DNA of 64,000 bases. Origin: Bacillota bacterium. Lineage in GTDB: Bacteria; Bacillota; Clostridia; Christensenellales; CAG-138. Made by a program: the position numbers and the translations under genes. The DNA lies in the NCBI GenBank assembly GCA_023435025.1, contig JAEYSE010000020.1, forward strand, positions 16,189 through 80,188, read 5' to 3'. Position 1 is the first letter of the stretch. Each line of letters opens with the position of its first letter. The notes under the pieces were generated by a model. It saw only the letters and a list, made by a program, of their open reading frames with translations. It made no database searches and was not told the DNA's origin. Of this stretch, positions 4,485 to 38,369 are shown in pieces.

Positions 4485-6323
4485 TTAACCTCCCATACCT
4501 TTGGCGATATCCGCGTTACCAAACCGATTGGTCAGCCAATATACAAACAACACGATGAGGAACATGCACACCGCCACGACGTTGGAGTAAGGCTCCATAT
4601 TGCTGTTGGAGTACGAGAACGCCATGTACGGCAGCGTGGCCAGCTTGGGCGTTACAATCAATATAATCAGGTCGAGTTCCTTCATGATGCTGATGAATAT
4701 CAGCATAAAGCCCGAAATAAACCCTGCCTTGGACAGCGGCAACACAATACGCCCCATGCGTTTGCCAAAGCCCGCGCCTTCTATGGAGGCCGCCTCCTCA
4801 AGCTCCATACCGATCTGCATCATGTTGGCGGTACCCGCGCGGCTTGAGAAAGGCAGGTGTTTGACCACCGAGACCAGCACCATCAGCGCGAATGTGCCGT
4901 AGAGCGAGGGTATCAAAAGTTGAGGCTTCGAGAACATGGAAAGGTAAATCGCGCCGAATGCGATCGAAGGGATCAGGTAGGGCACGAATACCAGCTGCTC
5001 CACCAGGCGGCCGGATATTTTACCTCGGCCACGGGATGTGATATAACCGATCAACTGCCCGCACAGCGTTCCGATTACGGACGTCACGACCACCAGCTTG
5101 AGCGTATTCCATACATTGGTCCAGAACCGCGGGTTCGCGAACACGCCCGGTTCTCCTTCAAATACCTCTGGTAACTGGTGTGCAGCCCCGGCCCAGTAAT
5201 GGAGTGAAAAATTACTCCACGCGTAGACGCCCGGCTTGAGCATAAACGTATCGACCATCAGTATCATGAGCGGCCCGATTACTGCGACGCAAACAAACAG
5301 GACCAAGAGTATTAACAGAACCGGCTTTGCGGCGCCCAGCGAAATCAGCGTATGGCGCCCGCCTTTGCCGCCGATCGTAGCGTAACTTTTCCGCGCGCCG
5401 ATTGCCCGCTGGTTTAAATACACGTTGAGCGCGGCGATGGTAATCAATATCATGGCAATGGCGAAGCCGGTGGTGGTATTTTGCTGTTTGACGGTGGAAT
5501 AGAGCATGGTGGAAATGGTGTAGTAATTTACCTTCATGCCGAGGAAAGCCGGTACGCCGAATGTACCCATGGATTTGGAGAATGTGAGTATGAACGCGGA
5601 AAGTATGGCAGGCAATACAAGCGGCAGCGTAATCCTTTTTAATATTTGAAACTTGCCCGCTCCCGCAATTTCGCCCATTTCCTCAAGCTCACTGTTGATG
5701 GACCCAAGCGCAGCCGATACCAGCAGGTAGGCATACGCGTAATAGTGGACGGTCAGCACGATAATGATCGGTATGGGTCCATAGGCCAGCCAGTCCGGCG
5801 TATCAATGCCTAAAGACGCCAGAAAGCCCATCGATCCGCCCACACGCGCGTTTTTGAACACCGCCATCCATGCCATGGATTTGCACCAGGAAGGCAGCAT
5901 GTATGGAACGATGATCGCGAGCGAAAAAAACTTCTTGAATGGAAGATCGGAGCGCACCATCAGCCACGCGATGCCCGCGCCCAAGCCGATGCTCAGCACG
6001 GATACCGTAATGGCAATCACCAGCGAGTTTACTAGCGGCTTGTACAAAAGCGAGTTGCTGACCTCTGTGAACAACAGGCGGTTCCAGTAAAACAGCGTGA
6101 AGTCTCCGACTTGCGCGCCGGGAATACGGCGAAGATCCTTGTTTGCTGCCTGGAATGTGGTGGAGATCATCTCCAGCAGCGGCACCACAATCAAATACGC
6201 CAGCAGTACAATGGCGACGATTACGATAATGTTGTACGGATTGGTAAACGTATTGATTAAGCCGTTCTTAAATCGTCTGCTTCGTGAAAACCCAAGTGAT
6301 CGCGGGACAGATTCGGGCCTCAT
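4485..6323 (-). CDS. Fused two-domain ABC importer permease (FbpB/AfuB-like), cassette 1
   Basis: 612 aa with two tandem transmembrane halves. Collinear paralog of 13127..14953. Start moved to the ATG at 6323, preceded by AAGGAGGAGCAA. Confidence 0.88.
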   Translation of the reverse strand: MRPESVPRSLGFSRSRRFKNGLINTFTNPYNIIVIVAIVLLAYLIVVPLLEMISTTFQAANKDLRRIPGAQVGDFTLFYWNRLLFTEVSNSLLYKPLVNSLVIAITVSVLSIGLGAGIAWLMVRSDLPFKKFFSLAIIVPYMLPSWCKSMAWMAVFKNARVGGSMGFLASLGIDTPDWLAYGPIPIIIVLTVHYYAYAYLLVSAALGSINSELEEMGEIAGAGKFQILKRITLPLVLPAILSAFILTFSKSMGTFGVPAFLGMKVNYYTISTMLYSTVKQQNTTTGFAIAMILITIAALNVYLNQRAIGARKSYATIGGKGGRHTLISLGAAKPVLLILLVLFVCVAVIGPLMILMVDTFMLKPGVYAWSNFSLHYWAGAAHQLPEVFEGEPGVFANPRFWTNVWNTLKLVVVTSVIGTLCGQLIGYITSRGRGKISGRLVEQLVFVPYLIPSIAFGAIYLSMFSKPQLLIPSLYGTFALMVLVSVVKHLPFSSRAGTANMMQIGMELEEAASIEGAGFGKRMGRIVLPLSKAGFISGFMLIFISIMKELDLIILIVTPKLATLPYMAFSYSNSNMEPYSNVVAVCMFLIVLFVYWLTNRFGNADIAKGMGG

Positions 6324-30412: not shown

Positions 30413-30696
30413 GGTTCTCCCTCTTTTCTTCGCTTTTCATTCACCCAATAGCGGCTGCCGTCCGGTATCCGTTCCAAAAGACCATAGTCAATCAGCAGGC
30501 GGCGCAAAACAAAGTAGTCCCCGAATGTATGCCATGCGTCGATCACTGCGTTGACTTCTTTTTCCGTATAGACCCGGTCCGTTTCAAATTTCGCGCAAAG
30601 GTATTCTAATACCGGAATTTTGGTCCGGTTCGGGACGGGGATTTGTTTGATCCTACCGTTGCCGTCCAGAAAAACGGCGATGCTTTTTGCTGCCAT
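30391..30696 (-). CDS. DUF2087-domain protein
   Basis: YTEKEVNAVIDAWHTFGDYFVLRRLLIDYGLLER is the DUF2087 signature. The 3' end overlaps the next gene by 22 nt. Confidence 0.65.
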   Translation of the reverse strand: MAAKSIAVFLDGNGRIKQIPVPNRTKIPVLEYLCAKFETDRVYTEKEVNAVIDAWHTFGDYFVLRRLLIDYGLLERIPDGSRYWVNEKRRKEGEPWTEERN

Positions 30697-30713
30697 AGAT
30701 TCACCTTCTGTTT

Positions 30714-30736
30714 TTAGTAAACTAGTAATTTACTAA
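30714..30736. promoter_or_regulatory. Inverted repeat TTAGTAAA-N7-TTTACTAA between a TATTAT -10-like box and the DUF2087 RBS
   Basis: Perfect 8-bp arms in an operator-like position on the minus-strand leader. Confidence 0.35.
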
Positions 30737-30845
30737 ATGATAATAGGCGAATTTTGCTTTTCTGTCAACCAGTTTTTCGCATGTTAAACGTCGTCGCGCG
30801 GCAGGCGCTAAATATTGACCCAAAAGCGTTCTTGCTCTTATCAAG

Positions 30846-30884
30846 CAAAAGCCGCCGGCATTCAGGCTGCCAGGCGGCTTTTGC
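30846..30884 (-). terminator. Rho-independent terminator after the aconitase X small-subunit gene
   Basis: AAGCCGCC (30849-30856) pairs with GGCGGCTT (30873-30880). The stem is flanked by an A-run and a T-run, so it is potentially bidirectional. Confidence 0.7.
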
Positions 30885-30904
30885 ATATCATGAAGTTGTT
30901 TTAT

Positions 30905-31345
30905 CTACGCCACGGTCACCGTGCCATCCGGCTCCACGTTTACTTGCATGCCGGTCTTGACGTAGCGCAAAAACTCATCGCCCAGCGAATCTACGGTGGG
31001 CATGGAGCAATCCGTCCATACGTCGGCGAGTATCGCGCCCGCGGCAGCAAGCGAATCGATGGGTTTTGAAAACAGCAAGCACGCAGGCTGCTGGCCTAAA
31101 GCTGCGGCGCAGTAGAGCACCATGCCGCCGGTGGTGGAGCCTATGGTCTGCGGCATGCACAGGGCGGCGCCCGCCATGGGCTTTTTGTAAAGCGCCGCGT
31201 TGTTCTGGTCCGAGCAAACGGCTTTTTTATCCCCAGACATCAGGCTCTTTTGAAAGCTTGCAAGCGTATTGAATCCCTGTGTGGATACAAGCGCCACAGC
31301 CTCGGCTTTGCCGGGCACAACGGCGCGGCCTTTGAATGTCTTCAT
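30905..31345 (-). CDS. Aconitase X swivel-domain small subunit (DUF126)
   Basis: MKTFKGRAVVPGKAEAVALVS ... QTIGSTTGGMVLY ... typical of DUF126. ATGA overlap with the DUF521 gene. Confidence 0.8.
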   Translation of the reverse strand: MKTFKGRAVVPGKAEAVALVSTQGFNTLASFQKSLMSGDKKAVCSDQNNAALYKKPMAGAALCMPQTIGSTTGGMVLYCAAALGQQPACLLFSKPIDSLAAAGAILADVWTDCSMPTVDSLGDEFLRYVKTGMQVNVEPDGTVTVA

Positions 31346-32619
31346 GCGTCTAAGCCCCCTTTTGTGAGCAATGCGAGAATTTCGGCGTCCGTGTGGTAGC
31401 GCGCGCTGGTGTATGTGCGCAGCTTGTTGGAGTTGGTTACAACCGGTACTTTTGCGCATAGCGGGTTGTTCATGTACATAAGCGGGCAGATGTCGGAAAC
31501 CACCACGCCTGCCGCTGTAAGCTGCTTGAATTCCGGCGTTTGTTCAAACGCGCCTTTTACGCCGGGCGCTGCCGTAAACACGGTGGGGATCAACGTCTTT
31601 TTGCGGTTGGCGGCTTTGAGGGCGGCAAGCAGGTGCGCCGTCCAGTCCTTTAGCTGCGCCATAGAGAGGTGCGGGCACCCCACAAAGCAGAGCTTGGGGG
31701 TAGCAGCAGGGTCCTTCCAGATGCATGGATAGCTGTCGCGCACGCGTCTTAGTTCCGCGTCGTCCACAATATAACGTCCTGCATCCGGCTGCAGAAGCGC
31801 GCGGCCTTCGCGTCTTGCTTCCGGCGTAACCCCCTCAATGTGGTAGAGGCCTACCGCGCCGTTGGAGGCGGTGGCTGCGCCCATATCCTTCAGGTACGCC
31901 TTTGCCCGGTCTGTCAGCCCATCCGGGAAGAAGCGGTCAAGCCCTACGATATACGGCACGTCCTCCATCACATGAAGGCCAATGGCACTGCCCAGCACCT
32001 GCGCTTCGGGCAGCGTATCGGTTGTAACTTCCACCAGCCACTTCGCCTTGCGGCCTTCATCGGTCAGCAGGCCAAAATAAGGGACGTACCCTACAATGCT
32101 TCCAAACAGTTCAATAATACCCGAGTTGCGGTTGCACCGCGCGCCGAGAACGCTGTTAACATATACCACCGCGCTGCTTTCCGCCCAACTTAACACGTCG
32201 CCTTCGTTGGGGATATTGCCTACTTCATCCATGTAGCAGGTACAGGTGAACGCGCTGGGGCTTAAAATACCAAGCTCCAGGAGCTGCTTCTCATAGGAGG
32301 ACTGCTTGGAATACATGACGTTGAATACCAGCTTCTGCAGCGTGTTCTGCGGTACGTTGGGGTCCAGCGGGCGCGGGTCCGCACTGAACGCCTGGCCGGA
32401 AAGCGCGCCGCCATCAATCAACTGCTGCATCAACGCGTACACCGGTTTCATAACGGAAAGGCCGAAGCTTGTCACAAGATGGCCGTACTTGCCTGTAACG
32501 GGAACCATTTTTGTTGCGCCGAAGGTTTCCCCATACATGACCAGCGTCTTCATCACTTTTTGCAGCGCTTCTCCTTTGGCGCCGGAAAGCAGCGCTTGTT
32601 GTTCCACGTTAAGTTGCAT
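31342..32619 (-). CDS. Aconitase X catalytic large subunit (DUF521)
   Basis: N-terminus MQLNVEQQALLSGAKGEALQKVMKTLVMYGETFGA and overall length (425 aa) match DUF521/AcnX large subunits. Confidence 0.8.
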   Translation of the reverse strand: MQLNVEQQALLSGAKGEALQKVMKTLVMYGETFGATKMVPVTGKYGHLVTSFGLSVMKPVYALMQQLIDGGALSGQAFSADPRPLDPNVPQNTLQKLVFNVMYSKQSSYEKQLLELGILSPSAFTCTCYMDEVGNIPNEGDVLSWAESSAVVYVNSVLGARCNRNSGIIELFGSIVGYVPYFGLLTDEGRKAKWLVEVTTDTLPEAQVLGSAIGLHVMEDVPYIVGLDRFFPDGLTDRAKAYLKDMGAATASNGAVGLYHIEGVTPEARREGRALLQPDAGRYIVDDAELRRVRDSYPCIWKDPAATPKLCFVGCPHLSMAQLKDWTAHLLAALKAANRKKTLIPTVFTAAPGVKGAFEQTPEFKQLTAAGVVVSDICPLMYMNNPLCAKVPVVTNSNKLRTYTSARYHTDAEILALLTKGGLDA

Positions 32620-32630
32620 GTCGCCACCCC

Positions 32631-34901
32631 CTAGACGCGCGCGGCAAGCGCATATGCGGCGCGGGTTGCCTCGAGTACCTTGCCCGCACTGAAGCTGTCG
32701 CCGATGTAATAGAGCTCATCCGCCGCACGCGCGCGCTGCGCTTCAAAGAACAGCGCGTCGTCGGGCTTGCCGCCCATCGCCAGTACCACTAGATCGGCCT
32801 TGAGCGTTTCATCCTGCTCTTCCGGTCCAATCTTCTTGGCAAGTGGGTTCTCAATGTTTTTGGGCAGTATCGGCTGCCAGGTGTTGTAGGGATCGGGAAC
32901 ACCGTCGGAGACGTTGCGGCGGATGGATACGGATTTTGCATCAAACCCCGTCACATTGGCGCAATTGTACGCCTTAACGCCTTCGCGCTTCATGTAATGC
33001 AGCAGATGGCCGCGGTTGGCGGTGCATACGCCTTCCATCATGTAGGGCAGCATTTCTACCACGCTGACATCCCGTCCGTGTTCGTACTTCAGCCAGTAGG
33101 CAATTTCACAGCCGACTACGCCCCCGCCCACCACGACGATCTCTTTGGCGTCCCCAATGAGGCCGGGGTTATTTAGGAGTGCCGTAGCCTGCACGGCGTT
33201 TGCCTGTTCAAGCCCGGGAAGCTTCGGTGTAACCGCGCGTGTGCCAACTGCCACCACAATGGCGTCGTAGCCTTGCGCTTTGAGCGTTTCGAGGGAAGCC
33301 TCCGTCTGGTAGTGAATGGTCAGCCTGCCAGTCTTTTCAGCCATCTGAGCCATGCGGCGCAGGTACACGAGGTAATTTTGAATATCGAATTTGATGCGCG
33401 GCACACTGCCGGGGATAGTCTTGCCGCCCAGCTGATCGCTTTTTTCAAACAATTCCACCGTGTGGCCGCGCTCTGCCGCAATGCTTGCAAACGTCACGCC
33501 CGCGGGGCCGCCGCCGATCACGGCGATGCGCTTCGCCTTTTGTACGGGCATGGTTTCGGGCAGGTTGTGCTCAAAGCCAGTTCTGGGGTTGACGGCGCAC
33601 TGCGGGTGCCCGCCGTCTACAAACTCGTTGATGCAGCCCTCCTGGCAGCCGATGCAGGGACAGATTTCTTCCACCTTGCCCGCAAATGCCTTCATGGGCC
33701 AATCGGGGTCGGCAAGCAGCGGCCTTCCCAGCATAACCATGTCGCATTCGCCCTCGCGCAGCGCGCGTTCGGCAATGTCCGGATACCCAAGCTTGCCAAC
33801 GGCCACAACGGGAACGGGGAGCCCGGCGTTGGAACGGATGTTGTTCTTTTCAAAGTGCTCTTTTACCAGCTTGGAGACCGCCAGGAAGCATCCTGCAGGC
33901 ATACCGGCCGGAGGATGCGGCAGCCACCAGTTGTCATAGCAGCCAAGATCCACGTCAAACATATCCACGCCTGCCTTGACGAGCGCTTCCATATACGCGA
34001 GCGTCTCATTGATGGAACGCCCGTTCTTGAACTTCTTGAGCGCCGGTACGTTCATGCCGCTTTCCCCATATGTTTCGTTGAGCGCAAGGGAAAGGTCGAT
34101 ACGGTACATGATGGGGTAGCTGTCTCCCGCGCGACGGCGGAGTTCCTTGATAAGATCAACGCCAAAGCGCATATAGTCCGCATATGGGCCCGCTTTGCGG
34201 TGGTTAAAGGCGGGGTTGGTGAGCTGTTCGAGCAGATATCCCTCATGCCCGTGCAGGTATACGCCGTCGATGCCTGCGGCTTTTGCGTCCGCAGCGGCCT
34301 GCCCTGCATTTTTGATGATTTTTTTGAGTTGCGCATCGCTTAATGGCATACATGGAATCTGCGGGATGTAGAAGTTTGGATTCATGGAGGCGGAGACGGG
34401 GAACTTCAGCTCATGAATCAGACACTGGGGATTTCCCACTCGCCCTAAACCGGGCGTCAACTGAATAAAGAGCTTGCTGCCATAGGCGTGTACGCCCTGG
34501 GCTAAGTCACGCCAGCCCGCGAACACGGTGCGGCTGCGGTCGATGCGCGGGAAGTAGGAAAGATGTCCAAGCTCGGTAATGGAATTGTCAATGCCGTGGC
34601 TGATGGGCACCAGGCCTGTGGTAATTAACCCCACGCCGCCTTTAGCGCGCGCAAAGAAGTATTGCAGCATTTTGTCATTGGGACGGCCGGTTTCCTCACA
34701 CATGTCGATGTTGCCCATGGGAGCCATGACTAGGCGGTTCTTAATGGTGAGCCTGTTGATCTGGATGGGAGAAAACATTGCGTCGTACGGGTAGAGCTCC
34801 TTTGTCATGCGGCCAGTGCCGCCCGCGCGGTTTTCATTTTCTCCTGTGACCCAACTGCCGTAGCTGTCCACAAGGGACTGTACCAAAGCGTCTGTCTTCA
34901 T
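32631..34901 (-). CDS. OYE-like FMN domain + 4Fe-4S + FAD/NAD(P)-binding flavoenzyme (2-enoate reductase / 2,4-dienoyl-CoA reductase family)
   Basis: TIM-barrel OYE segment (RLVMAPMG, HGHEGYLL), Cys cluster CPCIGCQEGC...C, two Rossmann motifs VIGGGPAG and VVGGGVVGCE. Start trimmed to 34901 (RBS AAGGAG). Confidence 0.85.
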   Translation of the reverse strand: MKTDALVQSLVDSYGSWVTGENENRAGGTGRMTKELYPYDAMFSPIQINRLTIKNRLVMAPMGNIDMCEETGRPNDKMLQYFFARAKGGVGLITTGLVPISHGIDNSITELGHLSYFPRIDRSRTVFAGWRDLAQGVHAYGSKLFIQLTPGLGRVGNPQCLIHELKFPVSASMNPNFYIPQIPCMPLSDAQLKKIIKNAGQAAADAKAAGIDGVYLHGHEGYLLEQLTNPAFNHRKAGPYADYMRFGVDLIKELRRRAGDSYPIMYRIDLSLALNETYGESGMNVPALKKFKNGRSINETLAYMEALVKAGVDMFDVDLGCYDNWWLPHPPAGMPAGCFLAVSKLVKEHFEKNNIRSNAGLPVPVVAVGKLGYPDIAERALREGECDMVMLGRPLLADPDWPMKAFAGKVEEICPCIGCQEGCINEFVDGGHPQCAVNPRTGFEHNLPETMPVQKAKRIAVIGGGPAGVTFASIAAERGHTVELFEKSDQLGGKTIPGSVPRIKFDIQNYLVYLRRMAQMAEKTGRLTIHYQTEASLETLKAQGYDAIVVAVGTRAVTPKLPGLEQANAVQATALLNNPGLIGDAKEIVVVGGGVVGCEIAYWLKYEHGRDVSVVEMLPYMMEGVCTANRGHLLHYMKREGVKAYNCANVTGFDAKSVSIRRNVSDGVPDPYNTWQPILPKNIENPLAKKIGPEEQDETLKADLVVLAMGGKPDDALFFEAQRARAADELYYIGDSFSAGKVLEATRAAYALAARV

Positions 34902-34990
34902 ACTGTTCCACTCCTTTGCTATATTGACTTGATGTGTGGTTGAGAGTTGAAAAAACCGAACCGGATTCTGTTTGTATACACCGTACCACA

Positions 34991-35008
34991 TTGTTAATTT
35001 ATTTACAA
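34991..35008. promoter_or_regulatory. Imperfect palindrome TTGTTAAT-TT-ATTTACAA (candidate TetR operator)
   Basis: 7 of 8 positions are symmetric. Located in the divergent intergenic region between the flavoenzyme and tetR. Confidence 0.4.
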
Positions 35009-35057
35009 TAGAATTTATAGTTTTATTCGAACTTTTCTGAAAAGAGGCAGGGAAGGG

Positions 35058-35081
35058 GATGTGCTATAGATGTGCTATAAT
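35058..35081 (+). promoter_or_regulatory. Extended -10 promoter (TGcTATAAT) embedded in a tandem 11-bp direct repeat GATGTGCTATA x2
   Basis: TATAAT at 35076-35081 with TG at 35073-35074. The repeat units are 35058-35068 and 35069-35079. About 27 nt upstream of the tetR ATG. Confidence 0.45.
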
Positions 35082-35107
35082 GGAGAACAGAAGGAGTGGT
35101 GAACGAT

Positions 35108-35692
35108 ATGGCGCTGCACACCAACGCGGAGCGCTCGCTTTTAACCCAGACACGTATTCTGCAGGCGGCTAGAAGGCTGGTAAAACGCCAGAGCTGGGAA
35201 GCGACAAAGATTAAAGAAATCTGCACCGAAGCAGGTGTTTCTATAGGCGCGTTCTACCACCATTTCGCCTCTAAACAGGAGCTGATGAACCGCGCCTTTT
35301 TGCTCTTTGACGATACGCTGGGGGAAAATTTGCCCGAACAGTCGGGCTCGCCCCTGGAGACGGTCAAAGAAGTACTGCTTGTGCAGACAGCGTTTGTGGT
35401 GAGTGAGGCCGGGTCAATCATTACGGAGTATTATAAGAATATTTTAATGGATAAATCCCGCTCCGCCGTTAACCCGGAGCGTGCGTATTACCGCAGGGTG
35501 CTTGCGTGTGTGGAAAACGCTCAGCCGTATTTTCGCAACGATCTGGAACCAACGTACATTGCGGAGCTGCTCATCAAATTTGTGCGCGGCTGTCTCATTG
35601 ACTGGTGCCTGCACGATTGCGGATATGATGTGGTGGAGCGTACGGGGAAGGAACTGGATTTTTTACTGGCGGGCCTAAAAACACAAAAATGA
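35108..35692 (+). CDS. TetR/AcrR-family transcriptional regulator
   Basis: HTH TKIKEICTEAGVSIGAFYHHFASKQEL. Start is either the ATG at 35108 or the GTG at 35096. Confidence 0.88.
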   Translation: MALHTNAERSLLTQTRILQAARRLVKRQSWEATKIKEICTEAGVSIGAFYHHFASKQELMNRAFLLFDDTLGENLPEQSGSPLETVKEVLLVQTAFVVSEAGSIITEYYKNILMDKSRSAVNPERAYYRRVLACVENAQPYFRNDLEPTYIAELLIKFVRGCLIDWCLHDCGYDVVERTGKELDFLLAGLKTQK

Positions 35693-35793: not shown

Positions 35794-36333
35794 TTAATAG
35801 TTCTCCGCAAGCACCTGGAAGAAGCTTAAGGGGTGTGCACATACCGGGCATACGTTGGGAGCTTCCGGGCCTTCGTGCACATGGCCGCAGTTGGCGCAGA
35901 TCCATTTGACGGGAGCATCCTTTTTGAATACCTTGCCCTCCTCAATGTTCTGGAGCAGCTTCAGGTAGCGCTCTTCGTGACGCTTTTCGATGGCGGCTAC
36001 GCCCTCCATCAGCTTGGCGATGTTGTCAAAGCCCTCTTCGCGCGCTTCCTTGGCCATGGTGGCGTACATATCCGTCCACTCATAATGCTCGCCGGCGGCG
36101 GCGTCCTTGAGGTTCTGCTCGGTCTTGGGAATGCCGTTGTGCAGGAACTTGAACCAGAGCTTTGCGTGCTCCTTCTCGTTGTCCGCCGTCTCGGTAAAGA
36201 GCGCGGCAATCTGCTCATAGCCGTCCTTCTTTGCCTGAGATGCATAGTAGGTGTACTTGGTGCGCGCCTGGGCTTCCCCGGCGAACGCAGCCATCAGGTT
36301 CGCTTCCGTCTTGGTGCCTTTCAAAGATTTCAT
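35794..36333 (-). CDS. rbr: Rubrerythrin
   Basis: Ferritin-like di-iron motifs (EAQARTKY, NEKEHAKLW, AIEKRHEERY) plus a C-terminal rubredoxin CxxC...CPVC. Start trimmed to 36333 (RBS AAGGAG). Confidence 0.9.
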   Translation of the reverse strand: MKSLKGTKTEANLMAAFAGEAQARTKYTYYASQAKKDGYEQIAALFTETADNEKEHAKLWFKFLHNGIPKTEQNLKDAAAGEHYEWTDMYATMAKEAREEGFDNIAKLMEGVAAIEKRHEERYLKLLQNIEEGKVFKKDAPVKWICANCGHVHEGPEAPNVCPVCAHPLSFFQVLAENY

Positions 36334-36504
36334 GTGTTTCTCCTTTCTATCCGGACCGGCCCTCGGGAATATCCCCAAAAGGGCATCGCCCTAATTGTAA
36401 ACAGAATGCGGGAATCAAAAACGGGTTTTAACAAAGAATGTTTTAGGCTGCTTTTGTAAAAATGGCGCACAGGCTGCCCCGTGCGCCGTTGTGCTTTAAG
36501 GAAC

Positions 36505-37500
36505 TCAGCCAGCCTGCTCGATAGCCACCGCCACCGCGACAGATGCGCCGACCATGGGGTTGTTGCCCATTCCGATGAGGCCCATCATTTCTACATGCGC
36601 GGGCACGGAGGAGGAGCCTGCGAACTGCGCGTCCGAGTGCATACGGCCCATGGTATCCGTCATTCCGTAGGAAGCGGGGCCCGCCGCCATGTTGTCCGGG
36701 TGCAGCGTGCGTCCCGTGCCGCCGCCGGAAGCCACGGAGAAATACTTCCTGCCGTTCTCGATGCACCACTTTTTATAGGTGCCTGCAACGGGATGCTGGA
36801 AGCGGGTGGGGTTGGTGGAGTTGCCGGTGATGGAAACGTCCACGTTTTCATGCCGCATGATGGCGACGCCTTCGTTCACGTCGTCCGCACCGTAGCAGCG
36901 CACCTTGGCGCGGTCGCCGGTGGAGAAGGACTTCTCATAGAGTATCTTCAGTTCGCCGGTGTAATAATCATACTCGGTTTCCACCAAAGTAAACCCGTTG
37001 ATGCGGGAGATGATGGTGGCCGCGTCCTTGCCAAGGCCGTTCAATATGACCTGCAAGGGGGTCGACCTAACCTTGTTGGCGGTCTTCGCGATGCCGATTG
37101 CGCCTTCCGCGGCGGCAAAGCTTTCATGGCCTGCAAGGAACGCAAAACACTTGGTCTCCTCGCGCAGCAGCATGGCGGCGAGGTTGCCGTGGCCAATGCC
37201 TACGACGCGCTGGTCCGCAACGGAGCCTGGGATGCAGAATGCCTGAAGGCCAATCCCCAGAGCTTCCGCGGCGTCTGCGGCGGACTTGCAGCCCTTCTTG
37301 ATGGCGATGGCAGCGCCCGCGATATACGCCCATACGGCGTTTTCAAACGCGATGGGCTGAATGGAGCGAACGATTCCCTCAACATCCACACCCTTTTGCT
37401 TGCAGATCGCCAGCGCGTCCTCCAGCCCGTTAATGCCGTATTCGGCGAGGGAGCGGTTGATCTTTTCTATTCTTCTTTCGTATCCTTCAAACTTAACCAT
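36505..37500 (-). CDS. GGGtGRT-family protein (conserved, uncharacterised)
   Basis: Contains the eponymous SGGGTGRTLHPDN motif and a Gly-rich C-terminus. RBS AAGGAGGGAG. Confidence 0.75.
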   Translation of the reverse strand: MVKFEGYERRIEKINRSLAEYGINGLEDALAICKQKGVDVEGIVRSIQPIAFENAVWAYIAGAAIAIKKGCKSAADAAEALGIGLQAFCIPGSVADQRVVGIGHGNLAAMLLREETKCFAFLAGHESFAAAEGAIGIAKTANKVRSTPLQVILNGLGKDAATIISRINGFTLVETEYDYYTGELKILYEKSFSTGDRAKVRCYGADDVNEGVAIMRHENVDVSITGNSTNPTRFQHPVAGTYKKWCIENGRKYFSVASGGGTGRTLHPDNMAAGPASYGMTDTMGRMHSDAQFAGSSSVPAHVEMMGLIGMGNNPMVGASVAVAVAIEQAG

Positions 37501-37518
37501 ACTAAACTCCCTCCTTTC

Positions 37519-38211
37519 TTATTCGTGGCGCGGGTCGATCACCTTGACGGCTTCCGCAAAGCGGCCGTAGGTGCCGATGTTCTTTTCAAAGGCTTCCTTG
37601 GGATCAACGCCCTTCTTGATGGCGTCCATCATCTTCCCTAAAGAAACGAAGCGGTAGCCGATCACCTGATCCTCCGCGTCCAGGCCAATGCCCAGCACGT
37701 AGCCTTCCGCCATTTCGAGATAGCGTACGCCCTTTGCGCCCGTGCTGTACATGGTGCCAATCTGGGACCTTAAGCCCTTGCCCAGATCTTCCAACCCTGC
37801 GCCAATGGGCAGGCCGTCCTCAGAGAACGCGCTCTGCGTGCGCCCGTAGGCGATCTGCAGGAACAGCTCGCGCATAGCGGTGTTGATGGCGTCGCACACA
37901 AGGTCGGTATTGAGCGCTTCAAGCACCGTCTTGCCGGGCAGCACTTCGGCCGCCATGGCTGCCGAATGCGTCATGCCGGAACATCCCAGGGTTTCCACCA
38001 GCGCTTCTTCGATGACGCCGTTCTTGACGTTGAGCGTCAGTTTACATGCGCCCTGCTGCGGCGCGCACCAGCCCACGCCGTGCGTAAGACCGCTGATATC
38101 CGTAACTTGCGTGGCCTTTACCCATTTGCCTTCCTCGGGAATGGGGGCAGGGCCATGCTTTGCGCCCTTGGCGACGCAAACCATTTCCTCCACCTCGCGG
38201 GAGTATTGCAT
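37519..38211 (-). CDS. NifU/IscU-N-terminal-like Fe-S scaffold-domain protein with C-terminal extension
   Basis: Three IscU-like Cys contexts: CAPQQGACKL, LGCSGMTHSAA, LVCDAINTA. Start trimmed to 38211 (RBS AAGGAGGG). Confidence 0.65.
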   Translation of the reverse strand: MQYSREVEEMVCVAKGAKHGPAPIPEEGKWVKATQVTDISGLTHGVGWCAPQQGACKLTLNVKNGVIEEALVETLGCSGMTHSAAMAAEVLPGKTVLEALNTDLVCDAINTAMRELFLQIAYGRTQSAFSEDGLPIGAGLEDLGKGLRSQIGTMYSTGAKGVRYLEMAEGYVLGIGLDAEDQVIGYRFVSLGKMMDAIKKGVDPKEAFEKNIGTYGRFAEAVKVIDPRHE

Positions 38212-38369
38212 GCTCAAATACCCTCCTTGAACTTTGATAAAAACTTGCAATATATATAGACCTATTGCTTCACGTTATAGTATAGCATGCATACAGGAAC
38301 TGCTGCACCTATTTTTTGTGACTTTTTCGTGGTATAATCCTGCTATCCGGCGTAGGGAGGGGAAGTGTA

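Follow-up and report, generated by a model that had tools for sequence, protein, structure and literature searches.

Aconitase X (AcnX) has been tied to two activities, and both of the characterised reactions are eliminations of an α-hydrogen and a β-hydroxyl that leave either a 2-enoate or an enamine (PMC8184944). The first, the type I enzyme, acts on hydroxyproline, and the second, the type IIb mevalonate-5-phosphate dehydratase of T. kodakarensis (TK1249/TK1248; structures 7CNR and 7CNS), is built from two subunits and has a UbiD/UbiX decarboxylase as its partner. The residues that bind the cluster and both known substrates were listed by Watanabe et al. 2021 (PMC8184944), where the bacterial subclasses IIc-IIf appear as uncharacterised and without the landmark residues of either established activity. 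Here we describe a locus from a Clostridia genome of the order Christensenellales (assembly GCA_023435025.1, contig JAEYSE010000020.1), in which the genes for a large and a small AcnX subunit (AcnX-L and AcnX-S) follow directly behind the gene of a flavoenzyme of the 2-enoate reductase kind, which we call red. The stretch of DNA analysed, hereafter the window, comprises 64,000 nucleotides. Altogether, the cassette is a real, widespread and conserved operon made of enzymes of known kinds, whose AcnX subclass and whose pairing are uncharacterised.

No description of an operonic pairing between AcnX and an enoate reductase-type enzyme was found in the searchable literature. In this line, a survey that deals with the gene clusters of Fe-S flavoenzymes from gut anaerobes (PMC7371122) mentions AcnX neither in its text nor in the accessible supplement, and an analysis of the 2-enoate reductase subfamilies (PMC11759058) does not mention the pairing. 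The account of the IIc-IIf subclasses (PMC8184944) likewise makes no mention of a reductase partner, in contrast with the cassette of the window. A parallel for the chemistry is the engineered route from citramalate through citraconate to 2-methylsuccinate with LeuCD and an enoate reductase (Wang et al. 2018, reference 30 of PMC12290011), which also puts an aconitase-family dehydratase before an ene-reductase on a free acid; that route, however, is synthetic and uses unrelated family members, whereas the pairing described here is natural and operonic.

Gene organisation of the cassette

The three genes lie on the minus strand in the order reductase, AcnX-L, AcnX-S, and a regulator of the TetR family is read divergently from them (Table 1). 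A preliminary description of the window had pointed out that the reductase gene precedes AcnX by only 11 nt and that the two AcnX subunits overlap by an ATGA. Both details were confirmed: the gap reads GGGGTGGCGAC, and the stop of AcnX-L and the start of AcnX-S share the ATGA at 31342-31345, by which AcnX-S is translationally coupled to AcnX-L. No promoter- or terminator-like site was found in the search between the three genes, which, together with the 11-nt gap, argues against a separation of the reductase from the AcnX genes by a promoter. The operon is closed by a hairpin with a folding energy of -28.7 kcal/mol (z -4.6), a value equalled by none of 200 shuffled sequences. All four genes, that of the regulator included, are single copy in the 3.17-Mb assembly.

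The open reading frame (ORF) of the reductase opens at 34991 on the minus strand, and the start chosen here is the ATG that stands 8 nt after AAGGAG. A longer reading of 786 aa from an upstream ATG was rejected, as all the orthologs begin with MKTD.

Table 1. Features of the reductase-AcnX locus, in coordinates of the window
Feature	Position	Strand	Remarks
red (reductase)	32631..34901	-	756 aa; ATG at 34901, stop TAG 32631-32633
AcnX-L, large (catalytic) subunit	31342..32619	-	425 aa; ATG at 32619
AcnX-S, small (swivel) subunit	30905..31345	-	146 aa; PF01989; aligned to 7CNR_B
Terminator-like intrinsic hairpin	30845..30884	-	closes the operon, 3' of AcnX-S
TetR-family regulator	35096..35692	+	divergent; likelier start ATG at 35108; PF00440
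First palindrome, ATTGTTAATTTATTTACAAT	34990..35009		8/10 pairs; 34991-35008 gives 7/9 pairs
Second palindrome, AAACCGAAC-CGG-ATTCTGTTT	34953..34973		in the leader of the reductase operon, between promoter and ribosome-binding site

Conservation of the reductase-AcnX linkage

The linkage was followed through a sample of 399 Clostridia genomes, taking as an AcnX ortholog any match of at least 53% identity. AcnX matches were present in 34 of these genomes and orthologs in 23. Ten of the latter, the window genome included, carry red directly upstream (60-72% identical), with the red orthologs measuring 752-758 aa; another eight hold in the same position an alternative reductase of ~687 aa, here named red2, and the remaining five keep red2 elsewhere in the genome. 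One reductase or the other is therefore found in 23/23 genomes with an AcnX ortholog, versus 9/376 of the AcnX-negative ones. Seen from the side of the reductases, red orthologs occur in 12/399 genomes, ten of them adjoining AcnX, and red2 orthologs in 20/399, thirteen with AcnX and seven without. The two reductases are 32% identical over their whole architecture, and both are unassigned members of one superfamily.

In a larger collection of species representatives, at least 597 genomes hold a relative of AcnX-L. The best-scoring 80 of these loci all come from gut or rumen organisms; among them red lies directly upstream in four and red2 in about 58 (as read from the table of loci), two have a red2-like gene ~3.8 kb downstream, and the remainder have none or lie near a contig edge. 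When the ortholog loci of both sources were pooled, 108 were obtained: 66 with red2, 17 with red, 19 with neither and six cut by a contig edge. A reductase thus stands directly upstream, on the same strand, in 83 of the 102 informative loci (81%), with a gap usually of 13-50 nt, and the adjacency that had been noticed in the window proves to be conserved across genomes. The gene order reductase, AcnX-L, AcnX-S is kept in every linked locus. A cultured carrier is Mediterraneibacter agrestimuris DSM 111629, in which red2 accompanies AcnX (locus L102). Two close relatives (L001 and L002) show the identical layout of TetR, reductase, AcnX-L and AcnX-S, another locus (L005) has reductase and AcnX with no TetR, and two more (L003 and L004) have AcnX alone. 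Deeper AcnX relatives, at 39-48% identity, are without the reductase, and those at 43-48% are found in unrelated contexts.

In a maximum-likelihood tree of AcnX, the red-linked rows are basal and paraphyletic, and most of the red2-linked rows fall in one derived clade (82 rows; approximate likelihood-ratio test, aLRT, 95), outside of which at least one further switch between red and red2 occurred. The likeliest history suggested by this tree starts from an operon of red and AcnX, with red2 taking the place of red at a later time. Because red was swapped for red2 with both the position and the tight spacing kept, a reductase function seems to be needed at that place, and such an exchange of partners is strong evidence that AcnX would need an ene-reductase beside it.

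The genes could, on the other hand, be co-transcribed without sharing a pathway, the reductase being a general NADH oxidase or an electrophile-detoxifying ene-reductase in the style of NemR/NemA, and AcnX having an unrelated job. Regulators of the TetR and MarR types, which are also controllers of electrophile-detoxifying enzymes belonging to the OYE (Old Yellow Enzyme) kind, do stand upstream in some lineages, and red2 persists in genomes of 0.8-1.0 Mb that lack AcnX. Moreover, in one genome (G345, contig C93, locus L118) a red ortholog of 54% identity lies apart from any AcnX, within a run of glyoxalase, red, TetR and a tungsten-type aldehyde:ferredoxin oxidoreductase that resembles a cluster for electrophile or aldehyde detoxification or for acid reduction. 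An adjacency of 81% held over many families, with two reductase clades in the same position, is however hard to explain without coupling, and no genome with an AcnX ortholog lacks both red and red2. An operon of unconnected functions is accordingly judged improbable, and a functional coupling of the reductase with AcnX is preferred.

Two observations stand somewhat aside from this picture. Two metagenome-assembled genomes of spirochaetes, a Treponema sp. (L062) and Candidatus Ornithospirochaeta (L078), hold AcnX orthologs that share 66-68% identity with those of Clostridia and branch from within them in the tree, either by horizontal transfer or by binning contamination. In addition, several very small Clostridia genomes keep red2 (G113 and G350, of 0.9-1.1 Mb and from the order of the window, as well as G141, G168 and G300), and two of these have retained the AcnX pair as well, placed away from red2, with fumarase and aconitase-family genes missing. 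This suggests that red2 matters for the minimal redox metabolism of very small genomes.

The AcnX subunits

AcnX-L matches the Pfam family AcnX (PF04412) with an E value of 3e-89 and 300 bits (cut-off 31.5), and AcnX-S matches AcnX_swivel (PF01989) with 3e-11 and 43 bits (cut-off 27). Both subunits are encoded by separate genes and score above the Pfam gathering threshold, as befits a heterodimeric enzyme of type II, and the best match of both in the PDB is the T. kodakarensis (Tk) enzyme 7CNR (E 2e-41 for the large subunit, with 7CNR_A, and 2e-7 for the small one). A MAFFT alignment of 147 sequences was used to compare the residues of the active site. At least 103 of 104 AcnX-L orthologs have kept Cys126, Cys315, Cys378, the stretch Glu147-Ser148-Ser149, Lys399 and Tyr403 unchanged, the Tk counterparts of these residues being Cys110, Cys283, Cys342, Glu129-Ser130-Ser131 and Lys361/Tyr365; the motif TIGSTTGG of AcnX-S, which holds the catalytic serine (Ser62 in the Tk small subunit), is identical in 101/101 orthologs. 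In its two subunits, three cysteine ligands, Glu-Ser-Ser, Lys/Tyr pair and small-subunit serine, the AcnX of the window is thus like the type IIb dehydratase. It differs from it, however, in its bacterial host, in its partner, which is an ene-reductase and not a UbiD/UbiX decarboxylase, in its position in a different major clade of the tree, and in the replacement of the phosphate-binding residues: Tk Ser50 is Phe52 and Tk Asn79 is Asp81 in AcnX-L of the window, and Tk Asn53 is Lys or Ser at position 55 in its clade.

In the tree, AcnX-L of the window belongs to a clade of 121 rows (aLRT 96), and the other clade, of 26 rows (aLRT 96), gathers TkAcnX, a type I enzyme and clostridial AcnX genes linked to TRAP transporters. 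The placement of the subunits, which the preliminary description had left to be settled, is therefore apart from both types I and IIb. With regard to type I, the window enzyme has in common the superfamily, the logic of an α-H/β-OH elimination and, in the small-subunit motif, a Thr after the catalytic Ser-Thr, but the hydroxyproline-binding Asp203 and Trp35 of AtAcnX are replaced by Val49 and Leu28, respectively, the cysteines follow the three-Cys pattern of type II and not the [2Fe-2S] pattern of type I, and the context holds no hydroxyproline genes.

These differences bear on whether the cassette could serve a hydroxyproline route. The sole NCBIfam match of AcnX-L is the LhpI model (NF051439), AcnX-S carries a Thr at the position of AtAcnX Thr72, and amine dehydrogenases share the flavoenzyme superfamily of the reductase. 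Nevertheless, the match to the LhpI model reaches 138 bits with a cut-off of 700, the alanine mutant of Asp203 in type I AcnX, the very residue that is Val49 here, is almost inactive (PMC8184944), the clade and the cysteine pattern are those of another type, and no hydroxyproline, proline or transporter genes were seen near the 108 loci examined. The grouping with hydroxyproline dehydratases that the preliminary description had kept in mind was thus not found, and a hydroxyproline route is considered very improbable.

A role in central metabolism, as a back-up aconitase, fumarase or mevalonate-5-phosphate dehydratase, would agree with the frequent location of the AcnX pair amid housekeeping genes with no transporter, and the archaeal mevalonate-5-phosphate dehydratase is indeed the closest solved structure. 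The window genome has, however, a class I fumarase together with LeuC-like and ~760-aa aconitase-family genes, and no complementary pattern of presence and absence appeared between 20 AcnX-positive and 17 AcnX-negative genomes. The replaced Tk phosphate-binding residues argue against the mevalonate reaction as well, and the reductase partner would be left unexplained, so that hardly any weight is given to such a back-up function. Its simplest form, a plain replacement of aconitase or fumarase, was rejected outright, since both are present in the window genome and in most AcnX-positive genomes.

Because of the separate clade and the replacement of the residues of the known substrate sites, the AcnX of the window is assigned to a distinct type II subclass, separate from types I and IIb. 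Like subclasses IIc-IIf (PMC8184944), its clade is missing the landmark residues of both known activities, and it most likely corresponds to one of them.

The reductase

The preliminary description had seen in the product of red a 756-aa flavoenzyme with an OYE barrel, a cysteine cluster and two Rossmann folds, an architecture borne out by Pfam and by alignment with a solved structure. The protein matches Oxidored_FMN (E 6e-42) and Pyr_redox_2 (E 2e-29), with NAD_binding_8/Pyr_redox covering a pair of Rossmann segments (residues 458-506 and 588-657), and when it is aligned with FadH, the 2,4-dienoyl-CoA reductase of E. coli (1PS9), its C-x2-C-x3-C-x11-C motif (CIGCQEGC...C) and HEGY(L) tyrosine coincide with the ones of that enzyme; 2-naphthoyl-CoA reductase (6QKG) was also aligned. 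HGHEGYL is kept in 18/18 red orthologs and the four-Cys motif in 17/18. All the parts of a reductase of the 2-enoate reductase/FadH type are hence present, namely the FMN barrel, the four-Cys motif, Rossmann folds for FAD and for NAD(P)H, and the Tyr that serves as proton donor. The OYE barrel, the [4Fe-4S] motif, the domains for FAD and NAD(P)H, and the EGY tyrosine are common to red and to clostridial 2-enoate reductases, FadH, 6QKG, BaiCD/BaiH and BilR, and red is predicted to be an OYE (FMN)/[4Fe-4S]/FAD-NAD(P)H reductase of this superfamily.

Within the superfamily, red differs from the named members. Its NCBIfam scores stay below the equivalog cut-offs for BilR-long (316 vs 750 bits) and BaiCD (308 vs 825), as well as for the mycofactocin OYE equivalog (249 bits, cut-off 793), and it has a conserved and clade-specific N-terminal extension of 31 aa and a C-terminal insertion of its own.

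Proposed reaction

Clostridial enoate reductases classically act on free 2-enoates. In this regard, we think it fairly probable that red, AcnX-L and AcnX-S form one transcription unit and that their products, an AcnX heterodimer working as a [4Fe-4S] dehydratase and an NAD(P)H-dependent Fe-S flavoenzyme with ene-reductase function, act in sequence on a free carboxylic acid, that is, one not bound to coenzyme A (CoA). In the first step, the serine of the small AcnX subunit would take the α-proton and the β-hydroxyl would be eliminated at the cluster's unique iron, with a 2-enoate as the product. In the second, the reductase would take electrons from NAD(P)H onto FAD and hand them on by way of its [4Fe-4S] cluster to FMN, and a hydride, together with a proton from the conserved Tyr, would be delivered to the C=C bond. 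The net conversion of a β-hydroxy acid and NAD(P)H into a saturated acid and water might work as an electron sink or as a salvage step. The module of dehydration followed by reduction that the preliminary description had put forward thereby gains support from linkage, phylogeny and operon structure, its chemistry being still a proposal.

Several observations weigh against this reading. AcnX has no adjoining reductase in 19 of the 102 informative loci, red occurs without AcnX in two genomes (G019 and G345) and red2 in seven, some of them of 0.8-1.0 Mb, and because of these unpaired cases neither enzyme can be strictly dependent on the other. Neither a conserved transporter nor any further conserved pathway gene was found in the 108 loci, with neighbours that are mostly housekeeping genes, and the putative control by TetR is limited to one family-level lineage. 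Moreover, what is said of the substrate pocket comes from sequence alignment alone, and in the N-terminal loop the HMMER alignment is shifted by two residues relative to that of MAFFT; the MAFFT register was preferred over the HMMER gap placement because of a conserved His47 column and the alignment with type I.

The order or the direction of the two steps might also be the reverse, with the reductase working first, for instance on a dienoate, oxo-enoate or ring substrate, and its product being hydrated, dehydrated or isomerised by AcnX, or with AcnX as a hydratase that competes for the same enoate. Aconitase-family enzymes are reversible, the reductase gene precedes those of AcnX-L and AcnX-S in every locus, and the seven genomes with red2 and without AcnX imply that this reductase has a substrate of its own. 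Gene order, however, does not dictate the order of reactions, no conserved neighbouring enzyme that could consume a hydroxy-acid product was found in the 108 loci, and both known AcnX enzymes work solely as dehydratases in vivo (PMC8184944). A reversed scheme is consequently held to be unlikely, if not negligible, and dehydration before reduction stays as the preferred sequence.

Candidate substrates

The substrate cannot be read from the genomic context, because no transporter or pathway gene is conserved nearby, and the remaining candidate would be a β-hydroxy acid taken up or formed with no dedicated transporter at the locus, and with a 2-enoate that two different enoate reductases can accept. 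Phe52 and the regulators of the TetR and MarR types give a weak hint of a hydrophobic substituent, aryl or alkyl; polar acids would be compatible with Arg401, Asp81 and a number of polar residues particular to the clade. With such indications, a β-hydroxy acid bearing a hydrophobic aryl or alkyl group, such as the 3-hydroxy-3-arylpropionates or the 3-hydroxy fatty and short-chain acids, is a tentative first choice that falls somewhat short of an even chance. Tertiary or di/tricarboxylic hydroxy acids of the citramalate, citrate or malate type are possible with distinctly lower expectation, a substrate outside the classes named here has a modest chance, and β-hydroxy amino acids a small one.

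A more definite version would be a CoA-independent reductive β-dehydroxylation, widespread in gut Clostridia, of a β-hydroxy acid from the diet or the host that needs no dedicated transporter, exemplified by 3-hydroxy-3-arylpropionates going to phenylpropionates or by free 3-hydroxy fatty and short-chain acids going to saturated acids; it is put forward as a possibility about which we are rather doubtful. The conversion of carnitine to γ-butyrobetaine, brought to mind by Asp81 and two clade-specific Phe residues, was weakened as a candidate by the presence of a BCCT transporter in just 1/20 AcnX-positive genomes.

Regulation of the operon

The divergent regulator announced by the preliminary description is a TetR protein (TetR_N, PF00440, E 4e-15). 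Its orthologs show 84-86% identity inside the genus, 53% for L094 and 46% for L144, and are confined to the family-level lineage of the window and L094; elsewhere the cassette goes with an unrelated TetR (L007, L008 and G345), with a MarR or with no regulator at all. The proposed control by TetR would be specific to one family-level lineage.

Two palindromes lie in the shared control region (Table 1). The first, at 34991-35008, which had been singled out initially, is real although imperfect. Its 20-nt form ATTGTTAATTTATTTACAAT is shared without a change by five genomes of the genus, in intergenic DNA that has otherwise diverged, and overlaps a plausible -35/spacer of the operon promoter (TTGTAA-17-TACGGT, read by eye); in other genera it was not found. 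The second palindrome, with the consensus AAACAGAA(C/T)-N3-GTTCGGTTT, follows the regulator more faithfully. It has at most one mismatch in four of the five sequenced members of the genus and two mismatches in the fifth (L141), and it is exact both in L094, where the operon has red, and in L144, where it lies upstream of red2. Because it is exact at the red2 locus too, this palindrome goes with the TetR ortholog and not with the type of reductase, and TetR and leader palindrome co-occur in three genera. The site at 34953-34973 tracks TetR better than the one first noticed, which is kept only within the genus, and is the best candidate for the TetR operator. In the lineage of the window, the divergent TetR would then repress the operon, probably at this site, until a small-molecule ligand binds. 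A reading of the leader palindrome as a LexA (Cheo) box was rejected, as its spacing is GAAC-N3-GTTC and not N4.

The only other near-copy of the first palindrome in the genome (19/20 positions; G000, contig C47:7451-7470, at 4950-4971 of locus L130) stands 15 nt upstream of pduL, which is the first gene of a microcompartment operon that goes on with an unknown gene, EutN, an aldehyde dehydrogenase, a PduS-like protein and a tandem-BMC shell protein. By a back-of-envelope calculation, ~0.005 matches to the 18-mer with at most one mismatch would be expected by chance in the genome. A regulon of TetR reaching the microcompartment operon might be imagined, but the idea is weakened because the congener G404, with an exact site at the reductase operon, has just 15/20 positions at pduL. 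Behind the microcompartment operon follow a DeoC-like aldolase, GntR and ADH, with one gene split across two contigs (C47 and C22:1-4700, locus L139).

On the other side of the control region, directly upstream of tetR, the window holds at 35058-35081 a tandem 11-mer, GATGTGCTATA GATGTGCTATA, whose second copy continues into an extended -10-like TGCTATAAT. It is possibly the promoter of tetR or an autoregulatory element.

Genomic neighbourhood

The neighbouring ORFs were clustered from 37 and then from 108 loci, with Pfam searches on ~60 neighbours. Only the three genes of the cassette recur across the 108 ortholog loci, in 108, 96 and 85 of them. Next in frequency comes a MarR gene, which immediately precedes red2 in 10 loci, followed by DegV (7 loci) and PlsY/Der/DUF512 (5-6 loci), with the DegV/PlsY/Der synteny probably being plain conservation of gene order. 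Other neighbours include UvrB, PGI, MutS2, RNase J, polysaccharide genes, an M18 peptidase and GGDEF proteins; genes for hydroxyproline or mevalonate metabolism were found in none of the 108 neighbourhoods.

A few local differences were also observed. In the sister species L001 (9800-14100), an ABC sugar-type importer (permease, ATPase and periplasmic binding protein) lies between AcnX-S and a DUF2087 gene, and the corresponding region of the window (30696-30905) is without it. Beside tetR, at 35794-38250, the window carries genes for a rubrerythrin, a GGGtGRT protein and a NifU-like protein, which are syntenic in the sister species L001 and L002 and stand outside the AcnX cassette in other lineages. 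Finally, two loci of one genus (L017, 6980-8179, and L019, 11972-13171) have directly after AcnX-S, on the same strand, a CofE-like gene of the 'F420-0:gamma-glutamyl ligase' family, 399 aa long and with a large insertion.

Implications

About 6% of the Clostridia species in the sample of 399 genomes carry the cassette, and the natural swap between red and red2 offers enzymologists a ready comparison. If the proposed two-step reaction is true, a long-unknown branch of the aconitase superfamily would receive a function that can be tested. In its CoA-independent form in gut Clostridia, that function would be the first one for an AcnX subclass among IIc-IIf, and the first natural case of an Fe-S dehydratase feeding an enoate reductase. 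Gut anaerobes would then be able to turn hydroxy acids into saturated acids without CoA, which would represent a new sink for NADH and a new source of microbial metabolites.

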